Positions 1 to 17,807 of a stretch of DNA of 17,807 nucleotides are shown here, piece after piece. Source of the DNA: Candidatus Eiseniibacteriota bacterium (GTDB lineage Bacteria > Eisenbacteria > RBG-16-71-46); contig JBGAOA010000080.1 in assembly GCA_044222065.1 (NCBI GenBank), positions 1 through 17,807 of the forward strand. The letters are read 5' to 3'. The translations under genes were made by a program, and so were the position numbers. The notes under the pieces are model-generated. The model was given only the letters and a program-made list of their open reading frames with translations, searched no databases and was not told the origin of the DNA. Each line of letters begins with the position of its first letter. Position 1 is the stretch's first letter.

Positions 1-183
1 CGCGGCGATCGCCGCGAGGCGGGCGCGCGCCTCCTGCACGGCGTCCGCGCGGCCGCGATTCACCGCCGACTGGAGCGCGCGCTTCGCGCCGGCGAGCGCG
101 GCGGGGTCGGCGTGGGCGGCGCCGCAGGCGAAGAGGAGCGCGGCGAGCGCCGCGGCGCGGGTCAGGGTCGAGCGAACGTTCAC
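1..183 (-). CDS. Exported helical protein, N-terminal 61 aa only (runs off the left edge); translationally coupled to the LytS kinase
   Basis: Manual translation from GTG at 183: MNVRSTLTRAAALAALLFACGAAHADPAALAGAKRALQSAVNRGRADAVQEARARLAAIAA. Signal peptide (basic N-terminus, hydrophobic core, AHA-D cleavage site). GTGA overlap with the kinase stop at 180-182, AAGGAG RBS at about 192-197. Not in the ORF track. Confidence 0.8.
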   Translation of the reverse strand, partial: MNVRSTLTRAAALAALLFACGAAHADPAALAGAKRALQSAVNRGRADAVQEARARLAAIAA

Positions 184-1292
184 GAGCGGACTCCTTTCGA
201 AGGGAAGGACGGGACGGCTTCGACGACGGGCAGGCGCAGCGTCAGCGTCGTTCCGGCGCCCGGGCGCGAATCCACCTCGAGCGTGTGGCCGGGGCCCGCG
301 ACGCGAAGGCGTTCGCGGACGGAGTGGAGCCCGAAGCCGGTGCCGCTCGGCGGGCCGTCCGAGAAGCCGGGGCCGTCGTCGGCGACGACGAGCACGAGCG
401 ACTCGCCCTCGCGCCGCGCGCGCAGCGTGATCGTCGCCCCGCGCTCGCTCGGCGAGACGGCGTAGCGGACGGCGTTCTCGACGAGCGGCTGGAGCAGCAG
501 CGCCGGCACCGGCAGTCCCTCGAGCCCCGGCGCGACGTCCTCGACGACGCGCAGCCGTTCGGCGAAGCGCGTGTGTTCGATCTCGAGGTAGTTGCGCAGG
601 AACGCCAGTTCCTCGCCGAGCGTCACGTGGTCGCGCTCGCTCGCCGTGAGCGTGTAGCGGAACAGCTCCCCGAGCCGGGTCGTCGTCTCCTCGGCCGCGC
701 GCGGGTCGAGCGTGATGAGCGATGCGATCGTGTTGAGCGTGTTGAAGAGGAAGTGCGGGTGCACCTGGGCGCGGAGCGCCCGCAGTTCGGCCTGCGCGAG
801 TTCGGCGCGCGTCTGCTCGATCGCGCGCGCCCGCGAGACCGCGAGCCGGTAGAACTCGCGGGCGAACGCGATGCCGCTGAAGAGCACGGCGAACAGCAGC
901 GTGTAGAGCCCGGAGACGACCCACGCCCGCGGGCTGCCGAGGAACCCGCGGCCGAACGTCAGCTCGAGGATGCCGGCGGCGAGGTAGCTGCACAGGATCG
1001 CGGCCGCGACGTACGCGGCGCCGATGCGCCAGCTGCGGCTCCACTCGCTGCCCTCGGACGGCACCGGGATGTGCGGGCGGATCCACGTCTCGACCGCCCA
1101 CATGCCGAGTCCGATGCAGTACGAGAAGACGAGCGCCGCGCCGTACGACCACAGGTAGCGCTCCCAGCCGCCGCCGAAGATCGTCCCGAAGAACAGCGCG
1201 AACGGCACGGCCACGAGCGGCTGGCGCACGAGGGTCCACAGCAGTCGGCGTGCGGGACGGCGGGGCGGGTCGCAATCGTTCGGGTTCGTCAT
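180..1292 (-). CDS. LytS/YehU-family membrane sensor histidine kinase (His_kinase + HATPase_c), 370 aa
   Basis: About 4 N-terminal TM helices. 'LRAQVHPHFLFNTLNTI' H-box, 'LGEELAFLRNYLEIEHTRF', 'LLQPLVENAVRY' N-box, 'DDGPG', 'GTGFGLHSVRERL'. GGAGG RBS upstream of the ATG. Confidence 0.95.
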   Translation of the reverse strand: MTNPNDCDPPRRPARRLLWTLVRQPLVAVPFALFFGTIFGGGWERYLWSYGAALVFSYCIGLGMWAVETWIRPHIPVPSEGSEWSRSWRIGAAYVAAAILCSYLAAGILELTFGRGFLGSPRAWVVSGLYTLLFAVLFSGIAFAREFYRLAVSRARAIEQTRAELAQAELRALRAQVHPHFLFNTLNTIASLITLDPRAAEETTTRLGELFRYTLTASERDHVTLGEELAFLRNYLEIEHTRFAERLRVVEDVAPGLEGLPVPALLLQPLVENAVRYAVSPSERGATITLRARREGESLVLVVADDGPGFSDGPPSGTGFGLHSVRERLRVAGPGHTLEVDSRPGAGTTLTLRLPVVEAVPSFPSKGVRS

Positions 1293-1307
1293 CGTGTCCT
1301 CCGCTCA

Positions 1308-1380
1308 CAGCATCGGGGCTCGGCGGAGCGGTGTCGCGACCGGAGCCGACGAACGGTCGTCCGGGACGGATGAACGGTCA
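1308..1380 (-). promoter_or_regulatory. Putative LytTR-activated promoter of the kinase: direct repeats TGACCGTTCATC (1380-1369) and CGACCGTTCGTC (1359-1348), plus -10-like CGATGCTG (1315-1308)
   Basis: 12-bp direct repeats with a 21-bp period, matching the AlgR consensus ACCGTTCGTC. The same architecture recurs at 2605-2677. Confidence 0.8.
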
Positions 1381-2598
1381 GCGGGGGGCGCCGCCCGCGG
1401 GGAGCACGCGCAGCGCCATGACGGTGATGTCGTCGCCGGGCTCCGCGCCGGCGAGGAACTCGCGGACGCCTTCGAGCACGCGGTCCACGACCGCCTGGCT
1501 CGACAGGTCGCGCGGCAGCGCGTCGAGCAGCGCGTAGAGGCGCTCCTCGCCGTACATGTCGCCGTCGGCGCGCGCCGCCTCGGTGACGCCGTCGGTGTAG
1601 AACACGATGCGGTCGCCTTCCGCGAGCGCGAGCGACTCTTCTTCGTACGGCGCGTGCTCGATCATGCCGACGACGAGGCCGCCGCGCTCGAGCAGCACGC
1701 GCTCGCCGCTCGCGCGCTGCAGGACGGGCAGGTTGTGGCCGGCGTTCGTGAAGCGCAGCGTGAGGCTCGGCTCGTGGATCGCCGCGAGGAAGAACGTCGC
1801 GAACTGGCCCGTGCTCGCGCGCTGGCACGCGAGCGCGTTGATCGTGCTCATCATCGCGGCGGGCGAGGCCACGGCGCCGGCCTGCGTGCGCAGCGAGGCC
1901 TGGAGCATCGAGGACAGGATCGCCGCCGGGACGCCCTTCCCGGAAACGTCGGCGATCGCGAGCAGGATCTCGGCGTCGTTCGGCGCGATCACGTCGTACA
2001 CGTCGCCGCTCACCTGCTTCGACGACACGTTCACCGCGTGCACCTCGACGCGCGAGCGGCGCGGGAATTCCGAGAGCAGGAACGAGCGCTGGATGCGTCT
2101 CGCGAGCTGGAGCTCGCGTTCCGAGCCGGCGTGCTCCATCGCGCGCCGGTAGAAGTTGATCGCGAGCGCGATCGCCATGAAGCCGGTGCCGAACAGCAGG
2201 CTGTACGTGAGCGACAGCACGATGCCGCGGGCGTTGCCGAGGAACCCGGGCACGATCCACTGGTTCACGACGAGCATGGCCGCGATCGTGCCGAGCAGGC
2301 TCATCACGAGGTGCGCGCCCGCGATCCACCAGGTGCGCGGACCCTCGTGGCGGAAGCGCTGCGCGAGCATCGGCCGCAGCGCGTGGTGCGCGACCCACAG
2401 CGCGCCGTGGATGCAGAAGCCGAACACGCCCGCGACGAGCAGGAACCCCGTCAGCGTTTCGCGGCGGCCGTCGTTCGTGAACCAGAAGAACACGCCGAAC
2501 GGCAGCGCGCTCGCCGGAGCGCGCCACAGGATGTGGAGCAGGTCCGGCAGCGGCGCGGGTTCGGCGCGCGGACGGCGGGGCTTCGGGGCGGCGCTCAT
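1378..2598 (-). CDS. Membrane-anchored PP2C/SpoIIE (RsbU-like) Ser/Thr phosphatase, 406 aa
   Basis: Motifs 'ELQLARRIQRSFL', 'VSGDVYD', 'IADVSGKG', 'FATFF', 'NAGH', 'FYTDGVTEA', 'GDDIT'. About 4 N-terminal TM helices. Start set at ATG 2598 (MSAAPK) because the longer ORF-track extension overlaps pdxH and the promoter. Confidence 0.93.
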   Translation of the reverse strand: MSAAPKPRRPRAEPAPLPDLLHILWRAPASALPFGVFFWFTNDGRRETLTGFLLVAGVFGFCIHGALWVAHHALRPMLAQRFRHEGPRTWWIAGAHLVMSLLGTIAAMLVVNQWIVPGFLGNARGIVLSLTYSLLFGTGFMAIALAINFYRRAMEHAGSERELQLARRIQRSFLLSEFPRRSRVEVHAVNVSSKQVSGDVYDVIAPNDAEILLAIADVSGKGVPAAILSSMLQASLRTQAGAVASPAAMMSTINALACQRASTGQFATFFLAAIHEPSLTLRFTNAGHNLPVLQRASGERVLLERGGLVVGMIEHAPYEEESLALAEGDRIVFYTDGVTEAARADGDMYGEERLYALLDALPRDLSSQAVVDRVLEGVREFLAGAEPGDDITVMALRVLPAGGAPR

Positions 2599-2604
2599 GC
2601 GGAG

Positions 2605-2677
2605 CAGCGTCGCGCGCGCGGCCCGCGGACGGGAGAAGACGGGCGACGAACGGTCGAACGCGAGGGACGAACGGTCG
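2605..2677 (-). promoter_or_regulatory. Putative LytTR-activated promoter of the PP2C gene: two perfect CGACCGTTCGTC boxes (2677-2666, 2656-2645) plus -10-like CGACGCTG (2612-2605)
   Basis: Identical 12-mers with a 21-bp period. Box-to-CGAYGCTG spacing is the same as at 1308-1380. Confidence 0.82.
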
Positions 2678-3354: not shown

Positions 3355-5160
3355 TCAGGCGGCGGCGCGCAGCGCGCCGTAGGCCGGGATGCGAATCGTG
3401 AAGCGGCTGCCGACGCCGGGAGCGCTCTCAAGCTCGATCGTGCCGCCGTGCGCTTCGACCACTCCGCGCGCGATCGACAGCCCGAGCCCGAGCCCCGCGG
3501 ACCCGAATTCGAGCGTCGCCGAGGAGTGGTGCTTGGAGTGGTCGTAGACGGTGATGCTGCGATCGAAGAGCGTCGCGTGACGTTCGGGCTCGATGCCGAC
3601 GCCGTCGTCCTCGACCTCGAGTTCGAGCCGGTCGTGGTGGCGCCGAGCCCGCACGACGACGTGACCGCCGTCGGGCGTGAAGCGGATGCCGTTCGCGACG
3701 AGATGGAACAGGCACTCCGAACTCTGCGCCGCGTCGAGCAGCGCGCCGTCGAGCCCCGGCGCGACCTCGGTCGTGACCGACACCCGCCGGTCCGGGCCCG
3801 CCGCGAGCGCGGCGCGGACGGCCGCCTCCACGAGTTCTCCCACCCGGGCCTCGGCGCGCTCGAGCCGCAGGCCCGTGCTGCGGATCTGCGCGAACCGCGT
3901 CGCGTCCTCGGCGATCTTGAGCAGCGTGCGCGCGCTGTGGCCGATCGCGTCCAGCGCCTCGCGCTGCTCCGCGCTCACCGGGCCGAGCAGTCGCTGCGAC
4001 ATCATCTCTTGGTAGCCCTGGATGACGCTGATCGGCGTGCGCAGCTCGTGCGAGGCGACGCTGATGAACTCCGACTTGAGACGCGTCACTTCCTCGAGGC
4101 TCGACACGTAGCGGCGATGACTCTGTCGCATCGCATCGAAGCGCCCGGCGAGGTCGCCGAGTTCGTCGCGCCGCGCGCGGTCGAGCGGCGCTTCGTAGTC
4201 GCCGTGCTCCATCGCCTCGGACGCCCGCACCATGCGCTGGATCGGGGCGACGAAGCCGCTCGAGACGAACAGGTTCACGAGCACCGCGACCGCGAGCACG
4301 ACGAGGCCGAGCCCGAGCATCTCGGCCTGAGCCCGGCGCAGCCCGGCGAATTCCGCGCGCAGCGAGCGCTGCAGGACGTAGCGCTGGCCGAGCGCGGGAT
4401 CGGCGTTCGGCAGCGGCCGGACGAGCGTCAGGAACACGTCGTCCTCGACGCGTGTCTCGGACAGGCCGTCGCCGACGAGCGGACGGAGCGGGGCGCCGGC
4501 GAGCACCGCGGTCCGCCGGCCCTCCTCGAGCGTCGAGGCGGTCGCGACGCCGCCGCTCAGGAACGACACTTCGCTGCGCGTGCGCGTCTTGAGCTGCTCG
4601 GCGAGCTCGCCGCCGACGCGGGCGCCGAGCACGAGCACGCCGACGACGCGGCCGCCCGCGACGACCGGCGAGGCGTTCACCTGCACGAGCACGCCGCGCA
4701 CGAGCACGGTGCGCGAGACGGGACGTCCTTCGAGCGCGGGACGCGCGAGCTCGGCGCGATGCGGTTCGCCGACGCTCTCGCGGCCGACGCTCGCCACGAG
4801 CGCGCCCGATTCGTCGAGCACGTCGAACACGTCGTGACCGACGATCGCGTTGAAGTCGCGCGCGACCCCGGCCATCGTCTCGCGCAGCGTCGGGTCCGCG
4901 GCGCCGCCCGGAATCGTGAGCGTGGCGAAGAACTTGGGGTCCTGCGCGATGACCTGCGCCTCGCCCGCGAGTTCGTGCGCGCGCGTCGCGAGCAGGTCCT
5001 CGAGCACGCCCGAGGCGCGCCGCAAGTCGCCGCGCAGCGTCGCGTCGGCCTGCTGCGATACCGCGCGCCCGAAGATCGCGAGCGTACCGGCGACGATCAC
5101 GACGATCGGTGGAAGGGTGAGCAGCAGCAGCCGGACCCGGAGCGGGATCCGGCGGATCAC
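3355..5160 (-). CDS. Sensor histidine kinase (TM-extracytoplasmic Cache-like-TM-HAMP-HisKA-HATPase_c), 601 aa
   Basis: TM 'LLLLTLPPIVVIVAGTLAIF'. HAMP 'PIQRMVRASEAMEHGDY...DELGDLAGRFDAM'. H-box 'EFISVASHELRTP', N-box 'LVANGIRFT', 'DDGVGI', 'GLGLGLSIARGVVEAHGG'. GTG start at 5160 overlaps the upstream stop (GTGA). Confidence 0.93.
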   Translation of the reverse strand: MIRRIPLRVRLLLLTLPPIVVIVAGTLAIFGRAVSQQADATLRGDLRRASGVLEDLLATRAHELAGEAQVIAQDPKFFATLTIPGGAADPTLRETMAGVARDFNAIVGHDVFDVLDESGALVASVGRESVGEPHRAELARPALEGRPVSRTVLVRGVLVQVNASPVVAGGRVVGVLVLGARVGGELAEQLKTRTRSEVSFLSGGVATASTLEEGRRTAVLAGAPLRPLVGDGLSETRVEDDVFLTLVRPLPNADPALGQRYVLQRSLRAEFAGLRRAQAEMLGLGLVVLAVAVLVNLFVSSGFVAPIQRMVRASEAMEHGDYEAPLDRARRDELGDLAGRFDAMRQSHRRYVSSLEEVTRLKSEFISVASHELRTPISVIQGYQEMMSQRLLGPVSAEQREALDAIGHSARTLLKIAEDATRFAQIRSTGLRLERAEARVGELVEAAVRAALAAGPDRRVSVTTEVAPGLDGALLDAAQSSECLFHLVANGIRFTPDGGHVVVRARRHHDRLELEVEDDGVGIEPERHATLFDRSITVYDHSKHHSSATLEFGSAGLGLGLSIARGVVEAHGGTIELESAPGVGSRFTIRIPAYGALRAAA

Positions 5161-5828
5161 AACGCCAGCTCCGTCCGCGCCTCGCCCTGATCCGGCACGT
5201 CCACGTCGCGCTCGGTCTCGGTGAAGTCCGGGTGCCACACGCGCACGCGATACCGGCCGGCCGGCAGGTCGGGCAGCGTGAAGTTGCCCTCGCGGTCCGG
5301 GCGGGCGAAGACGGGGTGCGGGATCACGAGCACGAAGGCCTGCATGTGCGAGTGGATGTCGCAGAACACGTTCACGAGCCCGGCGCGCGCGAAGGTGACG
5401 CGGCGGCTCTGGCCCTTCGGGTACTTGCCGAGGTCGAAGCGCTTGACGGGCGAGGGGCTGAACACGTTGTGGTAGACCGGATCGTCGTTCGGAAAATCCA
5501 CGGAGCCGCCCGTGGCGATCGCAACCACCCGCGGCTCGAAGCACTCGTTGCGCTGGCGCAATTCGGGCCGCTTCGCGCGCACGGCGTAGATCGAGTCCGC
5601 GCTCGCGGGCGCCGTCTGCACGAACACGACCGCGTCGGAGACGAGTCCGCGCGGCATGCGGCGGGCGTTCGCCATCGCGCTCGCCTGCCCGGGGTAGGCG
5701 TGCAACTCGGGCGCGGCCGCCGGCGCCGCGCTCCGCACGACGATGCGGCCGCTCAGCGTGCCGGCGGAGGCCGGGGCGGCGAGCGCGAAAGCGAAGACGA
5801 CGAGGGTTCCGAGGGGTGCGGGTCGCAT
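5157..5828 (-). CDS. Exported cupredoxin-like protein with C-terminal carboxypeptidase-regulatory-like (prealbumin-fold) domain, MauL-like, 223 aa
   Basis: Signal peptide ending 'APASA-G'. 'FEPRVVAI...VDFPNDDPVYHNVFS' and 'VFCDIHSHM' supply His, Cys-x2-His-x2-Met. 'GNFTLPDLPAGRYRVRVWHP'. AGGA RBS before ATG 5828. Confidence 0.85.
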   Translation of the reverse strand: MRPAPLGTLVVFAFALAAPASAGTLSGRIVVRSAAPAAAPELHAYPGQASAMANARRMPRGLVSDAVVFVQTAPASADSIYAVRAKRPELRQRNECFEPRVVAIATGGSVDFPNDDPVYHNVFSPSPVKRFDLGKYPKGQSRRVTFARAGLVNVFCDIHSHMQAFVLVIPHPVFARPDREGNFTLPDLPAGRYRVRVWHPDFTETERDVDVPDQGEARTELAL

Positions 5829-6073
5829 GAGGTCCTGGGTGCGGGAGGGGCAGCGGCCGGCGGACGGAGGCTCCCGGGCGTTTTCGACCCGACGCCGGAG
5901 GCGCTTGAGCCGGAATCGGCCGCGATCGGCTGCGATGGCGCGTGCAACGGCGGCCCGAAGCGCTTCCGGAAAGGTCGCTTGCGCGAAGCCCGCGGCGCGC
6001 AACCGACCGGAGGCGTCGCCGGAACCTGGGGGGGCCGGCGTCACGCGGGCCCCGCGCGAGCGACGACGCTGAC

Positions 6074-17164: not shown

Positions 17165-17226
17165 GGTTCGATACTCCTCGAACGGATGGACTCGGTGACG
17201 CGGCCGCAGGGTGAGCGAGGCCGCGC

Positions 17227-17255
17227 ACCATAAGCAGACCGCGCTCCCCCGGCAA
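17227..17255 (-). promoter_or_regulatory. sigma70-type promoter for the DUF2911 gene (TTGCCG-N17-TATGGT)
   Basis: -35 at 17255-17250, -10 at 17232-17227. Confidence 0.55.
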
Positions 17256-17285
17256 CCGGCCCCGCGGCCGCGAAGGAGAACCGCG

Positions 17286-17807
17286 ATGGACGTTCGCGAG
17301 GCGCAGCGAGAGATCCACGACGTGTATTGGGGCGGCGGCATCGGCGCGCTCGTCTCGGCCGCGGTGTGGGCGGTGTCCACCGCGCTCACGGCGACCCGAT
17401 CGGAATCCCTCGGCCGGGCGGCGCTGTTCATCGGCGGCGCGTTCATCTTCCCCGGCACGATGCTCGCGCTGCGGCTCCTCGGCCGGCGCGCTTCGATGTC
17501 GCACGAGAATCCGCTCGGCGCGCTCGCGACCCAGATCGCGTTCACGGTGCCGGCCGCGTTCCCGCTCGCGTTCGCGCTCGCACTGTTCCGCCCCGGCTGG
17601 TTCTACCCGGCGGCGCTCGTGATCGTCGGCGCGCACTACCTGCCGTTCATCTTCCTCTATGGCCGCGCCCACTACGGCGTGCTCGCAGGCGTCATGGCGG
17701 GCGCGGGGCTCGCGCTCGGGCTCTACCGGCCGCGCGAGGTCGCGCTCGGCGGCTGGATCGGCGCGGGGCTGTTAGTCGTCTTCGGCGCCTACGTTTTGAT
17801 GACCACG
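17286..17807 (+). CDS. Multi-pass membrane protein, DUF7010-like (runs off the right edge)
   Basis: Manual translation: MDVREAQREIHDVYWGGGIGALVSAAVW...FIGGAFIFP...HENPLGALATQIAF...WFYPAALVIVGAHYLPFIFLYG... AAGGAG RBS at 17272-17277, open to the window end. Family assignment is from recalled motifs only. Confidence 0.78.
   Translation, partial: MDVREAQREIHDVYWGGGIGALVSAAVWAVSTALTATRSESLGRAALFIGGAFIFPGTMLALRLLGRRASMSHENPLGALATQIAFTVPAAFPLAFALALFRPGWFYPAALVIVGAHYLPFIFLYGRAHYGVLAGVMAGAGLALGLYRPREVALGGWIGAGLLVVFGAYVLMTT

Follow-up and report, generated by a model that had tools for sequence, protein, structure and literature searches.

A duplicated four-helix membrane sensor on a LytS-type kinase and a PP2C phosphatase of Eisenbacteria, and a possible haem/porphyrin-responsive circuit around it

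Introduction

The locus described here raises the question of how a single kind of membrane sensor can serve two signalling outputs at once, and of what such a sensor might detect. It lies in an entire contig (JBGAOA010000080.1, C129 below) of 17,807 nucleotides, hereafter the window, from the Candidatus Eiseniibacteriota genome GCA_044222065.1 (4.2 Mb, 94% complete), in which a LytS-type histidine kinase and a PP2C phosphatase are encoded as neighbors on the reverse strand. We find that both proteins carry a copy of one unnamed membrane sensor, that both genes very probably belong to a LytTR regulon, and that the kinase operon also encodes a homolog of the porphyrin binder HusA. We propose, with a probability of about 0.5, that these parts form a self-activating LytS/LytTR circuit that senses a haem/porphyrin-like molecule at the inner membrane and feeds partner switching.

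Results

The kinase and the phosphatase share an unnamed membrane sensor

The two proteins and their sensor copies are placed as follows.

180–1292, reverse strand: LytS-type sensor histidine kinase of 370 residues (sensor, coiled coil, His_kinase with H-box His180, HATPase_c)
837–1250, reverse strand: kinase copy of the four-helix membrane sensor, residues 15–152 (from alignment and predicted fold)
1378–2598, reverse strand: RsbU/SpoIIE-type PP2C phosphatase of 406 residues (four-helix sensor, short linker helix, catalytic domain with metal-binding Asp motifs)
2137–2547, reverse strand: phosphatase copy of the four-helix membrane sensor, residues 18–154 (from BLASTP and alignment)

A first-pass annotation of the window, made from its letters, had reported both open reading frames and a likeness between their N-termini; the positions and translations are as claimed, its hand counts over two ungapped blocks (20/57 and 19/36 identities) are exact, and both domains do end in FYRxA (FYRLA and FYRRA in the two proteins). 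Pfam recognizes His_kinase (PF06580, residues 168–247) and HATPase_c in the kinase and SpoIIE (PF07228, residues 208–398) in the phosphatase; neither N-terminus has an above-cut-off match in Pfam or NCBIfam. Aligned with one another, the N-termini share 51 of 152 residues (34%, BLASTP E 2e-17), with a Smith-Waterman score of 167 (5,000 full shuffles: mean 32.7, maximum 68, z 23.6) that is reached by none of 5,000 shuffles in each of three further kinds, which preserve hydrophobicity within windows of 5, 10 or 20 residues. The E value and the shuffles reject chance likeness of hydrophobic segments, and the paralogous domain of about four transmembrane helices claimed at the outset is borne out.

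AlphaFold2, run on an alignment of 64 sensor sequences, predicts four helices (predicted local distance difference test, pLDDT, 90.2; pTM 0.80). Lysine plus arginine averages 4.0 per loop between helices 2 and 3, compared with 0.7 in loop 1 and 1.2 in loop 3, which orients both termini inward and the two short loops outward. Residues that the two copies share are concentrated on the outer half of helix 1 (P30, F31, F34, F35, G40), the PGFLG..R loop and the end of helix 4, together with F56, and those forming a putative pocket (P30, F31, F34, F35, G40, F56, PGFLG, R122, F134, A144) are kept at 60–100% in both; the outer face presents conserved Phe residues and one Arg (79%). Among the motifs listed earlier as conserved (PF..FF, CI...W, GFLG..R), the isoleucine of CI...W holds at 62–91%, but its cysteine, found in at most 26% of either group, has to be dropped. 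Several kinase residues, among them W27, Y46 and G128, are not kept in the phosphatase copy.

The domain is a duplicated membrane sensor that has no name in the databases searched, as the first-pass annotation had supposed. No known sensor family in Pfam or NCBIfam (MASE, Lyt, MHYT, 7TM and others) matches more than two of the 64 sensor domains at E 0.1, and the 5TM-5TMR_LYT and GAF domains of Pfam occur in neither protein and in none of the 64. The PDB yields no clear match by sequence, and Foldseek nothing at E≤0.001; the best fold match from VIA (Z 7.8, root-mean-square deviation, rmsd, 3.6 over 127) falls among generic helical bundles, and the lack of a clear match is no proof of a new fold. 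Weak aquaporin and cytochrome bd matches were set aside as composition effects. Homology was likewise undetected to the sensors of three Hymenobacter, one Gemmatirosa and two own-genome LytS kinases. Two metagenome kinases that lie behind a box identical to the one described below score a weak 10–12 bits against the sensor (equaled by 1 and 0 of 200 shuffles; hhalign 44%), and may possibly extend the family. In the ESM Atlas, unnamed Bacteroidota clusters came up at 0.91–0.92.

Kinase and phosphatase genes carry the same LytTR operator

The promoter regions of the two genes contain four predicted elements.

1348–1379, reverse strand: predicted LytTR operator before the kinase operon, GACCGTTCRTC twice with a 21-bp period, beginning in the phosphatase stop codon
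2645–2676, reverse strand: predicted LytTR operator before the phosphatase gene, the same GACCGTTCRTC double repeat
1309–1314, reverse strand: predicted −10 hexamer of the kinase operon, 34–39 bp after the box
2606–2611, reverse strand: predicted −10 hexamer of the phosphatase gene, with the start codon 7 bp later (likely a leaderless mRNA)

LytTR operators are described as 9-bp repeats with a 12-bp spacer about 10 bp before the −35 element (PMC6193735), and the predicted site has this geometry (9 bp + 12 bp). Its 9-bp core is the AlgR core site, given as CCGTTCGTC in the available text of PMC4064291. The −35 element starts 10 bp after the box and the −10 element spans +34 to +39; among 46 boxed genes, A at +35, T at +39 and T at +11 are each found in 35. 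About 20 of the 46 have their start codon some 7 bp after the −10 element, which suggests leaderless mRNAs.

Scored with a leave-one-locus-out matrix at a threshold of 12 bits, the box precedes 26/32 kinase genes, 20/32 phosphatase genes and none of 448 other genes of the same loci; the six unboxed kinases each stand directly behind a boxed phosphatase, where the two genes share one promoter. The genome holds three strong boxes (36–40 bits; the next best, at 19.5, is inside coding DNA), the third of which precedes an ABC-2 exporter on contig C34, and its three other LytS loci show no such double-repeat site. Of the order's 102 genomes, 63 contain the pattern (reversed control, 0): box and kinase are found together in 61, kinase only in 6, box only in 2 and neither in 33. 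Away from sensor genes we count 32 boxes, of which 24 lie before an ABC ATPase gene, accompanied in 22 cases by an ABC-2 permease, two before an HlyD/MacB-type exporter, two before a DUF7010 gene, three before other genes and one before none; no biosynthetic or precursor-peptide gene stands behind any of the 32. We consider it very probable that these sites define a LytTR regulon. The initial proposal of one input with two outputs survives insofar as a duplicated sensor sits on two outputs; the outputs are not simply parallel, however, since both genes carry the LytTR box and the phosphatase is therefore also downstream of the kinase.

Several further sites were noted. A DUF7010 membrane protein is encoded at 17211–17807 (forward strand) of the window, and its homologs follow a LytTR box in three other genomes (G127, G129, G024); none precedes the window copy. 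Among 80 metagenome loci with the exact box, the first gene is a sensor gene in 11, an ABC ATPase gene in 2 and not called in 37, the gene caller being one tuned to high G+C content. In five of these stretches (L241, L251, L280, L283, L291) the same exact box, tandem twice in L291, is followed by genes for a sodium:solute symporter and a small membrane protein, which we take to be a DUF485-like/solute-symporter pair; this group, in DNA resembling that of actinobacteria, is probably a separate LytTR regulon. Four exact double-box matches within 180 bp of L249 are probably a tandem repeat and not an operator.

The sensor copies are old paralogs on two conserved outputs

Distribution was assessed in 206 Eisenbacteria genomes, with kinase and phosphatase called by full-length profiles. 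The sensor is present in 109, on a kinase in 70, on a phosphatase in 81 and on both in 48; 36 of those 48 have the phosphatase gene on the kinase's strand, no more than 3 kb upstream of the kinase gene, so the adjacency is not confined to one genome. The kinase occurs alone in 22 genomes and the phosphatase in 33, although genes cut by contig ends score below threshold and some of these cases (e.g., G006) are artefacts; 26 of the 33 belong to family f11, where the sensor-kinase was not found in any of 41 genomes. The sensor family is narrow (138 matches among 1.84 billion representatives). Partners were scanned in 62 of the 138, mostly the longer matches, giving 29 SpoIIE, 9 His_kinase and 24 without a partner (mostly fragments), such that LytS kinases and SpoIIE-type PP2Cs are the only partners detected.

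In a quick tree, whose deep nodes are poorly resolved and which gives no direction of duplication, the sensors sort by output type (7 label changes compared with 35 in shuffles, 0/500). Sensor pairs from one genome are no closer than pairs across genomes (identity 0.346 vs 0.340, n=35, p=0.43; mean rank 16.9, 18 expected). Together, clustering by output and the lack of own-genome excess mark the copies as old paralogs and leave recent within-genome duplication or gene conversion unsupported. The kinase copy is the better conserved (40.4% identity), compared with 34.5% among phosphatase copies and 33.7% between the two. The phosphatase domains that carry the sensor fall into two lineages, the one in the window grouping with a 770-residue GAF-PP2C of the same genomes, and a single origin of the sensor–PP2C fusion is rejected (approximately unbiased, AU, test p=0.006, in a quick, long-branched tree of 23 rows). 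The sensor may thus have been recruited to PP2C enzymes at least twice, a step that we advance tentatively, as one part of the full haem-receptor reading set out below. The closest relative of the phosphatase domain in this genome is a 776-residue membrane GAF-PP2C on contig C46 (L183:178–2508), and in several genomes this relative lies ~20–30 kb from the kinase–phosphatase pair on the same contig.

Both outputs look catalytically active, as far as their motifs tell. In the kinases, the H box of which was used to sort the set, the N box is kept in 46/46, G1 in 44/46 and G2 in 46/46. The window's phosphatase has the metal-binding Asp of motifs 1, 2, 8 and 11 of PF07228; across the family, catalytic motifs are kept in 38–49 of 49 and the metal-binding Asp motifs in 49/49, 48/49 and 49/49, which argues that enzyme output is under selection. 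Its nearest solved chains are RssB (3EQ2/3ES2), Rv1364c, a SiaA-like protein (6K4E) and SpoIIE. The linker from helix 4 to the H box has a single length in 46/46 kinases, and that of the phosphatases has three lengths 4 residues (about one turn) apart, seen in 37, 2 and 9 of 48. A register-dependent coiled coil would give this pattern, which also agrees with the mechanism described for RsbU, where a sensor can be exchanged between PP2Cs and kinases because coiled-coil linkers connect it to either enzyme (PMC12143880, in the text available). Kinase and phosphatase linkers differ in length by 15 residues.

These data bear on how the two proteins relate. One reading has the induced phosphatase act on the kinase, their membrane domains pairing or competing for ligand to yield negative feedback or a heteromeric receptor. 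The tandem order in 36 of 48 genomes, the box that induces both genes (with one shared promoter in six genomes) and a kinase–phosphatase sensor identity close to that among phosphatases would all suit such an arrangement, but the Asp motifs are maintained as for an enzyme with its own output, the linkers are of unequal length, and either protein is found without the other (in 22 and 33 genomes, some of them incomplete assemblies) with no co-variation of own-genome sensors. We regard this reading as improbable; the heteromeric receptor offered as an option by the first-pass annotation is, as an obligate state, unlikely in view of the last two observations.

A second reading would have the sensors, as old paralogs, detect different signals, the phosphatase being a mere regulon member and the shared domain a product of modular shuffling. 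Clustering by output type, weaker conservation of the phosphatase copy with loss of W27, Y46 and G128, the joining of the sensor to two PP2C lineages and the unboxed phosphatases of family f11 are what it would lead one to expect; that the putative pocket residues are common to both copies, and that the phosphatase stands under the same operator in 20/32 cases, is not. This too we hold to be improbable, if anything slightly more so, and we consider it quite probable that the phosphatase is regulated through its own sensor copy.

The phosphatase substrate is likely a STAS protein, as is usual for its family; we infer this from the family only, since no partner-switching gene lies beside it. Candidate components lie elsewhere in the genome: a single RsbW-like kinase on C98, FliA-like sigma factors and three STAS proteins. 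Two of the STAS genes are tandem on contig C106 (L184:6437–7137), between a TPR gene and exbB-exbD-exbD-tonB-tonB; they are candidate substrates, and their setting hints at a possible link to TonB energization. A STAS gene on C51 (L185:6294–6743) is situated between mraZ and rsmH, at the head of a division/cell wall cluster.

The kinase operon encodes a HusA homolog and a TonB-dependent receptor

The window ends within the kinase operon, which continues on contig C58; the two contigs are joined by a 28-bp overlap and by conserved gene order.

1–183, reverse strand: 5′ part of the gene for a HusA-like secreted TPR protein, its GTG start overlapping the kinase stop; continues on C58
C58:643–2847: TonB-dependent receptor, behind the HusA-like gene
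C58:2858–3628: REC-LytTR regulator, last gene of the kinase operon

The operon consists of kinase, binder, receptor and LytTR regulator only. TPR and receptor genes lie behind the kinase in 30 of 41 mapped loci, and remain with the kinase where the kinase–phosphatase pair is split; family f12 has the same cassette.

The TPR protein (predicted fold pLDDT 96) matches the HusA profile at E 5.5e-19 over positions 16–186, and HusA is the only natural protein matched across the whole domain by sequence. HusA also heads both structural searches with the predicted model (Foldseek E 8.8e-7, TM 0.65/0.77; VIA Z 20.2, rmsd 3.7 over 194), and by profile and model alike the protein is a HusA homolog. The haemophore HusA is described as having a hydrophobic groove in which it binds haem as well as metal-free porphyrins, and as working with the TonB receptor HusB (PMC6173696); its relative FqPBP of Flavobacterium is also reported to bind porphyrins (bioRxiv 10.64898/2026.04.07.716877). 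At the compared groove positions (F80, M116, L122, P126, W130, L157, Y164) hydrophobic character is kept, as are P126 and L157, but F80 and W130 are mostly replaced and Y164 varies among H, N and Y.

Comparable loci were seen elsewhere. A Chondrinema (Bacteroidota) plasmid (L351:4102–8869) holds a HusA-like gene, a TonB receptor, a LytS kinase and a LytTR regulator, with a different repeat of 21-bp period at 3982; its sensor looks unrelated, homology to ours being undetected. In the metagenome loci L230 (1125–3359) and L246, which do not look like Eisenbacteria DNA, the identical box precedes the gene for a lipoprotein weakly resembling the HusA-like family (E 1e-4 to 2e-4), together with genes for a LytTR regulator and a LytS kinase of four helices; no TonB receptor lies within the stretch.

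Searches of this genome, which is 94% complete, gave no HemB, HemC or HemH, yet it encodes two haem-copper oxidase subunits I. HemB is present in 20/88 other genomes of the family, compared with 13/13 sister-family genomes and 37/41 of family f11; haem auxotrophy is probably widespread in this Eisenbacteria family, as read from gene content. Within the family, HemB occurs in 4/43 genomes with a HusA-like gene and in 16/46 without (Fisher p=0.005, a value inflated by kinship).

A proposed circuit, and the evidence on both sides

These elements can be arranged into a circuit. A ligand would enter a pocket in the outer half of the kinase helices, lined by PF..FF..G in helix 1 and by the PGFLG..R loop preceding helix 4, and turn the coiled coil of fixed length. 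The kinase would then phosphorylate the LytTR regulator encoded last in its operon, a step established for the family. The regulator would bind the repeat 10 bp before the −35 element of three promoters: that of its own operon (kinase, HusA-like binder, TonB receptor and regulator), giving positive feedback and uptake; that of the ABC-2 exporter, giving export; and that of the phosphatase. Newly made phosphatase would use its own sensor copy to read that ligand or a related one, dimerize via its linker in RsbU-type fashion and dephosphorylate a STAS protein. Because phosphatase output would need both induction and ligand, the arrangement would be a coherent feed-forward loop acting as an AND gate.

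That the ligand is a tetrapyrrole is a close call, which we place just on the doubtful side. Its main competitor keeps the same wiring for another hydrophobic, non-tetrapyrrole ligand, which could be a lipid, an antibiotic or peptide that acts on membranes, or a signal that the cell makes itself, sends out through the ABC transporter and takes up again via the TonB receptor. We judge this unlikely. Against it stand the porphyrin binding of HusA and FqPBP, the two relatives of the binder that have been characterized, the position of HusA as its sole natural whole-domain match, the failure to find HemB, HemC and HemH, and the lack of a biosynthetic or precursor-peptide gene behind any of the 32 boxes.

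Several observations nevertheless weigh against the haem/porphyrin circuit, and most of those at its input would suit a non-tetrapyrrole ligand. The most constant non-sensor target, in 22/32 cases, is a DrrAB/ABC-2-like exporter, outside the known haem exporter families. The groove residues F80 (L, M or V in 27/29) and W130 (M, A, G or V in 29/29) are not kept in the binder, and position 164 is H in 15, N in 10 and Y in 4 of 29; TatT and a sterol transporter, which bind lipids or sterols, score Z 15–17 against the binder fold in VIA. No His, Met or Cys that could serve as an iron ligand is well conserved in the sensor. Genus g22 retains kinase, regulator, box and exporter without binder (HusA-like gene in 0/18) or receptor, and haem-synthesizing relatives retain the cassette, since all 13 genomes of two sister families have HemB and 9 carry the HusA-like gene; the HemB tally within the family in turn overstates the link, as kin are not independent. 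On the output side, 12/32 phosphatase genes lack a box, the sensor-phosphatase of family f11 has neither box nor kinase, the genome encodes about eight PP2Cs, and no STAS or anti-sigma gene adjoins the sensor-phosphatase.

In sum, we give even odds to a self-activating LytS/LytTR circuit that senses a haem/porphyrin-like molecule and feeds partner switching. The full statement, that the domain is a new four-helix intramembrane haem/porphyrin receptor, used on a kinase to run a scavenge-and-export regulon in haem-auxotrophic free-living bacteria and on an induced PP2C as an AND gate, with at least two recruitments to PP2Cs, asks for more at once and is on balance unlikely.

Other loci

Two further loci were recorded. 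Contig C94 (L180:3752–7253) has a second LytS/LytTR system behind two LiaF/LiaI-like membrane genes, resembling an envelope-stress module. At 3355–5904 (reverse strand) the window encodes a HAMP/HisKA kinase with a dCache-like domain and a secreted cupredoxin/carboxypeptidase-like protein; these unboxed genes are syntenic upstream of pdxH in 12–13 of 41 loci.

Discussion

Each part of this system belongs to a known kind, and the sharing of sensors between PP2Cs and kinases is a principle already described (PMC12143880, in the text available). The nearest system in anatomy is AlgZ(FimS)/AlgR of Pseudomonas aeruginosa, likewise a PF06580 kinase with a REC-LytTR regulator, in which AlgZ has four N-terminal helices of unknown function; the available text of that review (PMC4064291) does not give the AlgR sites as a 21-bp tandem pair and describes no phosphatase twin, whereas here the repeat is double and a twin sensor sits on the neighboring phosphatase. 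The BtsS/YpdA/LytS subfamily differs in the sensor, combining 5TM-5TMR_LYT with GAF (for BtsS, a Lyt domain plus GAF; PMC5936718, as available), compared with four helices lacking such a match here.

The Hus system of Porphyromonas gingivalis resembles ours in having HusA (here, a homolog) beside a TonB-dependent receptor in a host apparently without haem synthesis. The hus operon contains the regulator HusC and the membrane protein HusD, with no two-component system in the available description (PMC11681262); the operon here has LytS/LytTR instead, with HusC and HusD absent, and its binder carries an additional TPR at the C-terminus and differs in groove residues. Like RsbU/RsbP/RssB-type PP2Cs, the phosphatase has a SpoIIE-family domain whose Asp motifs are intact and which follows a linker helix; it departs from them in its membrane-embedded four-helix sensor, its LytTR operator, the sensor paralog on a kinase and the absence of anti-sigma or STAS genes nearby.

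For haem sensing through a membrane, HssS/HssR-HrtAB (Staphylococcus aureus) and ChrS/HrrS (Corynebacterium) may serve as a working analogy, with no homology detected. HrtB is of the MacB type, an exporter type found at 2/32 boxed non-sensor loci here. The membrane kinase HssS is described as reading haem through Phe and Arg residues at its outer face and inducing an ABC exporter (PMC11237747, in part); it is of the HisKA class with another regulator class, in contrast to the PF06580 kinase and LytTR regulator here. The LytTR Regulatory Systems HdrRM and BrsRM autoregulate by 9-bp direct repeats 12 bp apart and have linked ABC transporters (PMC6193735, in the text available), but use a membrane inhibitor and no kinase, where we find a receiver-domain regulator with its cognate kinase. 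In the literature searched, which took in few subscription journals and no supplements, no paper was found that describes this sensor, a HusA cassette under LytTR control or a tandem kinase–PP2C pair with twin sensors and one operator.

The review text available (PMC4064291) reports no known signal for four-helix LytS sensors such as AlgZ, and a ligand for the sensor described here would therefore be a useful lead; the reading given above offers this unnamed membrane sensor family a testable ligand class. The presence of the same domain on a kinase and a PP2C, with linkers constrained in length, makes a natural test bed for the linker-made exchangeability of sensors, and the proposed feed-forward link from a LytTR regulon to Ser/Thr partner switching would be one that can be read from DNA. 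For the organisms themselves, the circuit suggests how soil and freshwater Eisenbacteria, apparently without haem synthesis, may regulate scavenging from their neighbors.

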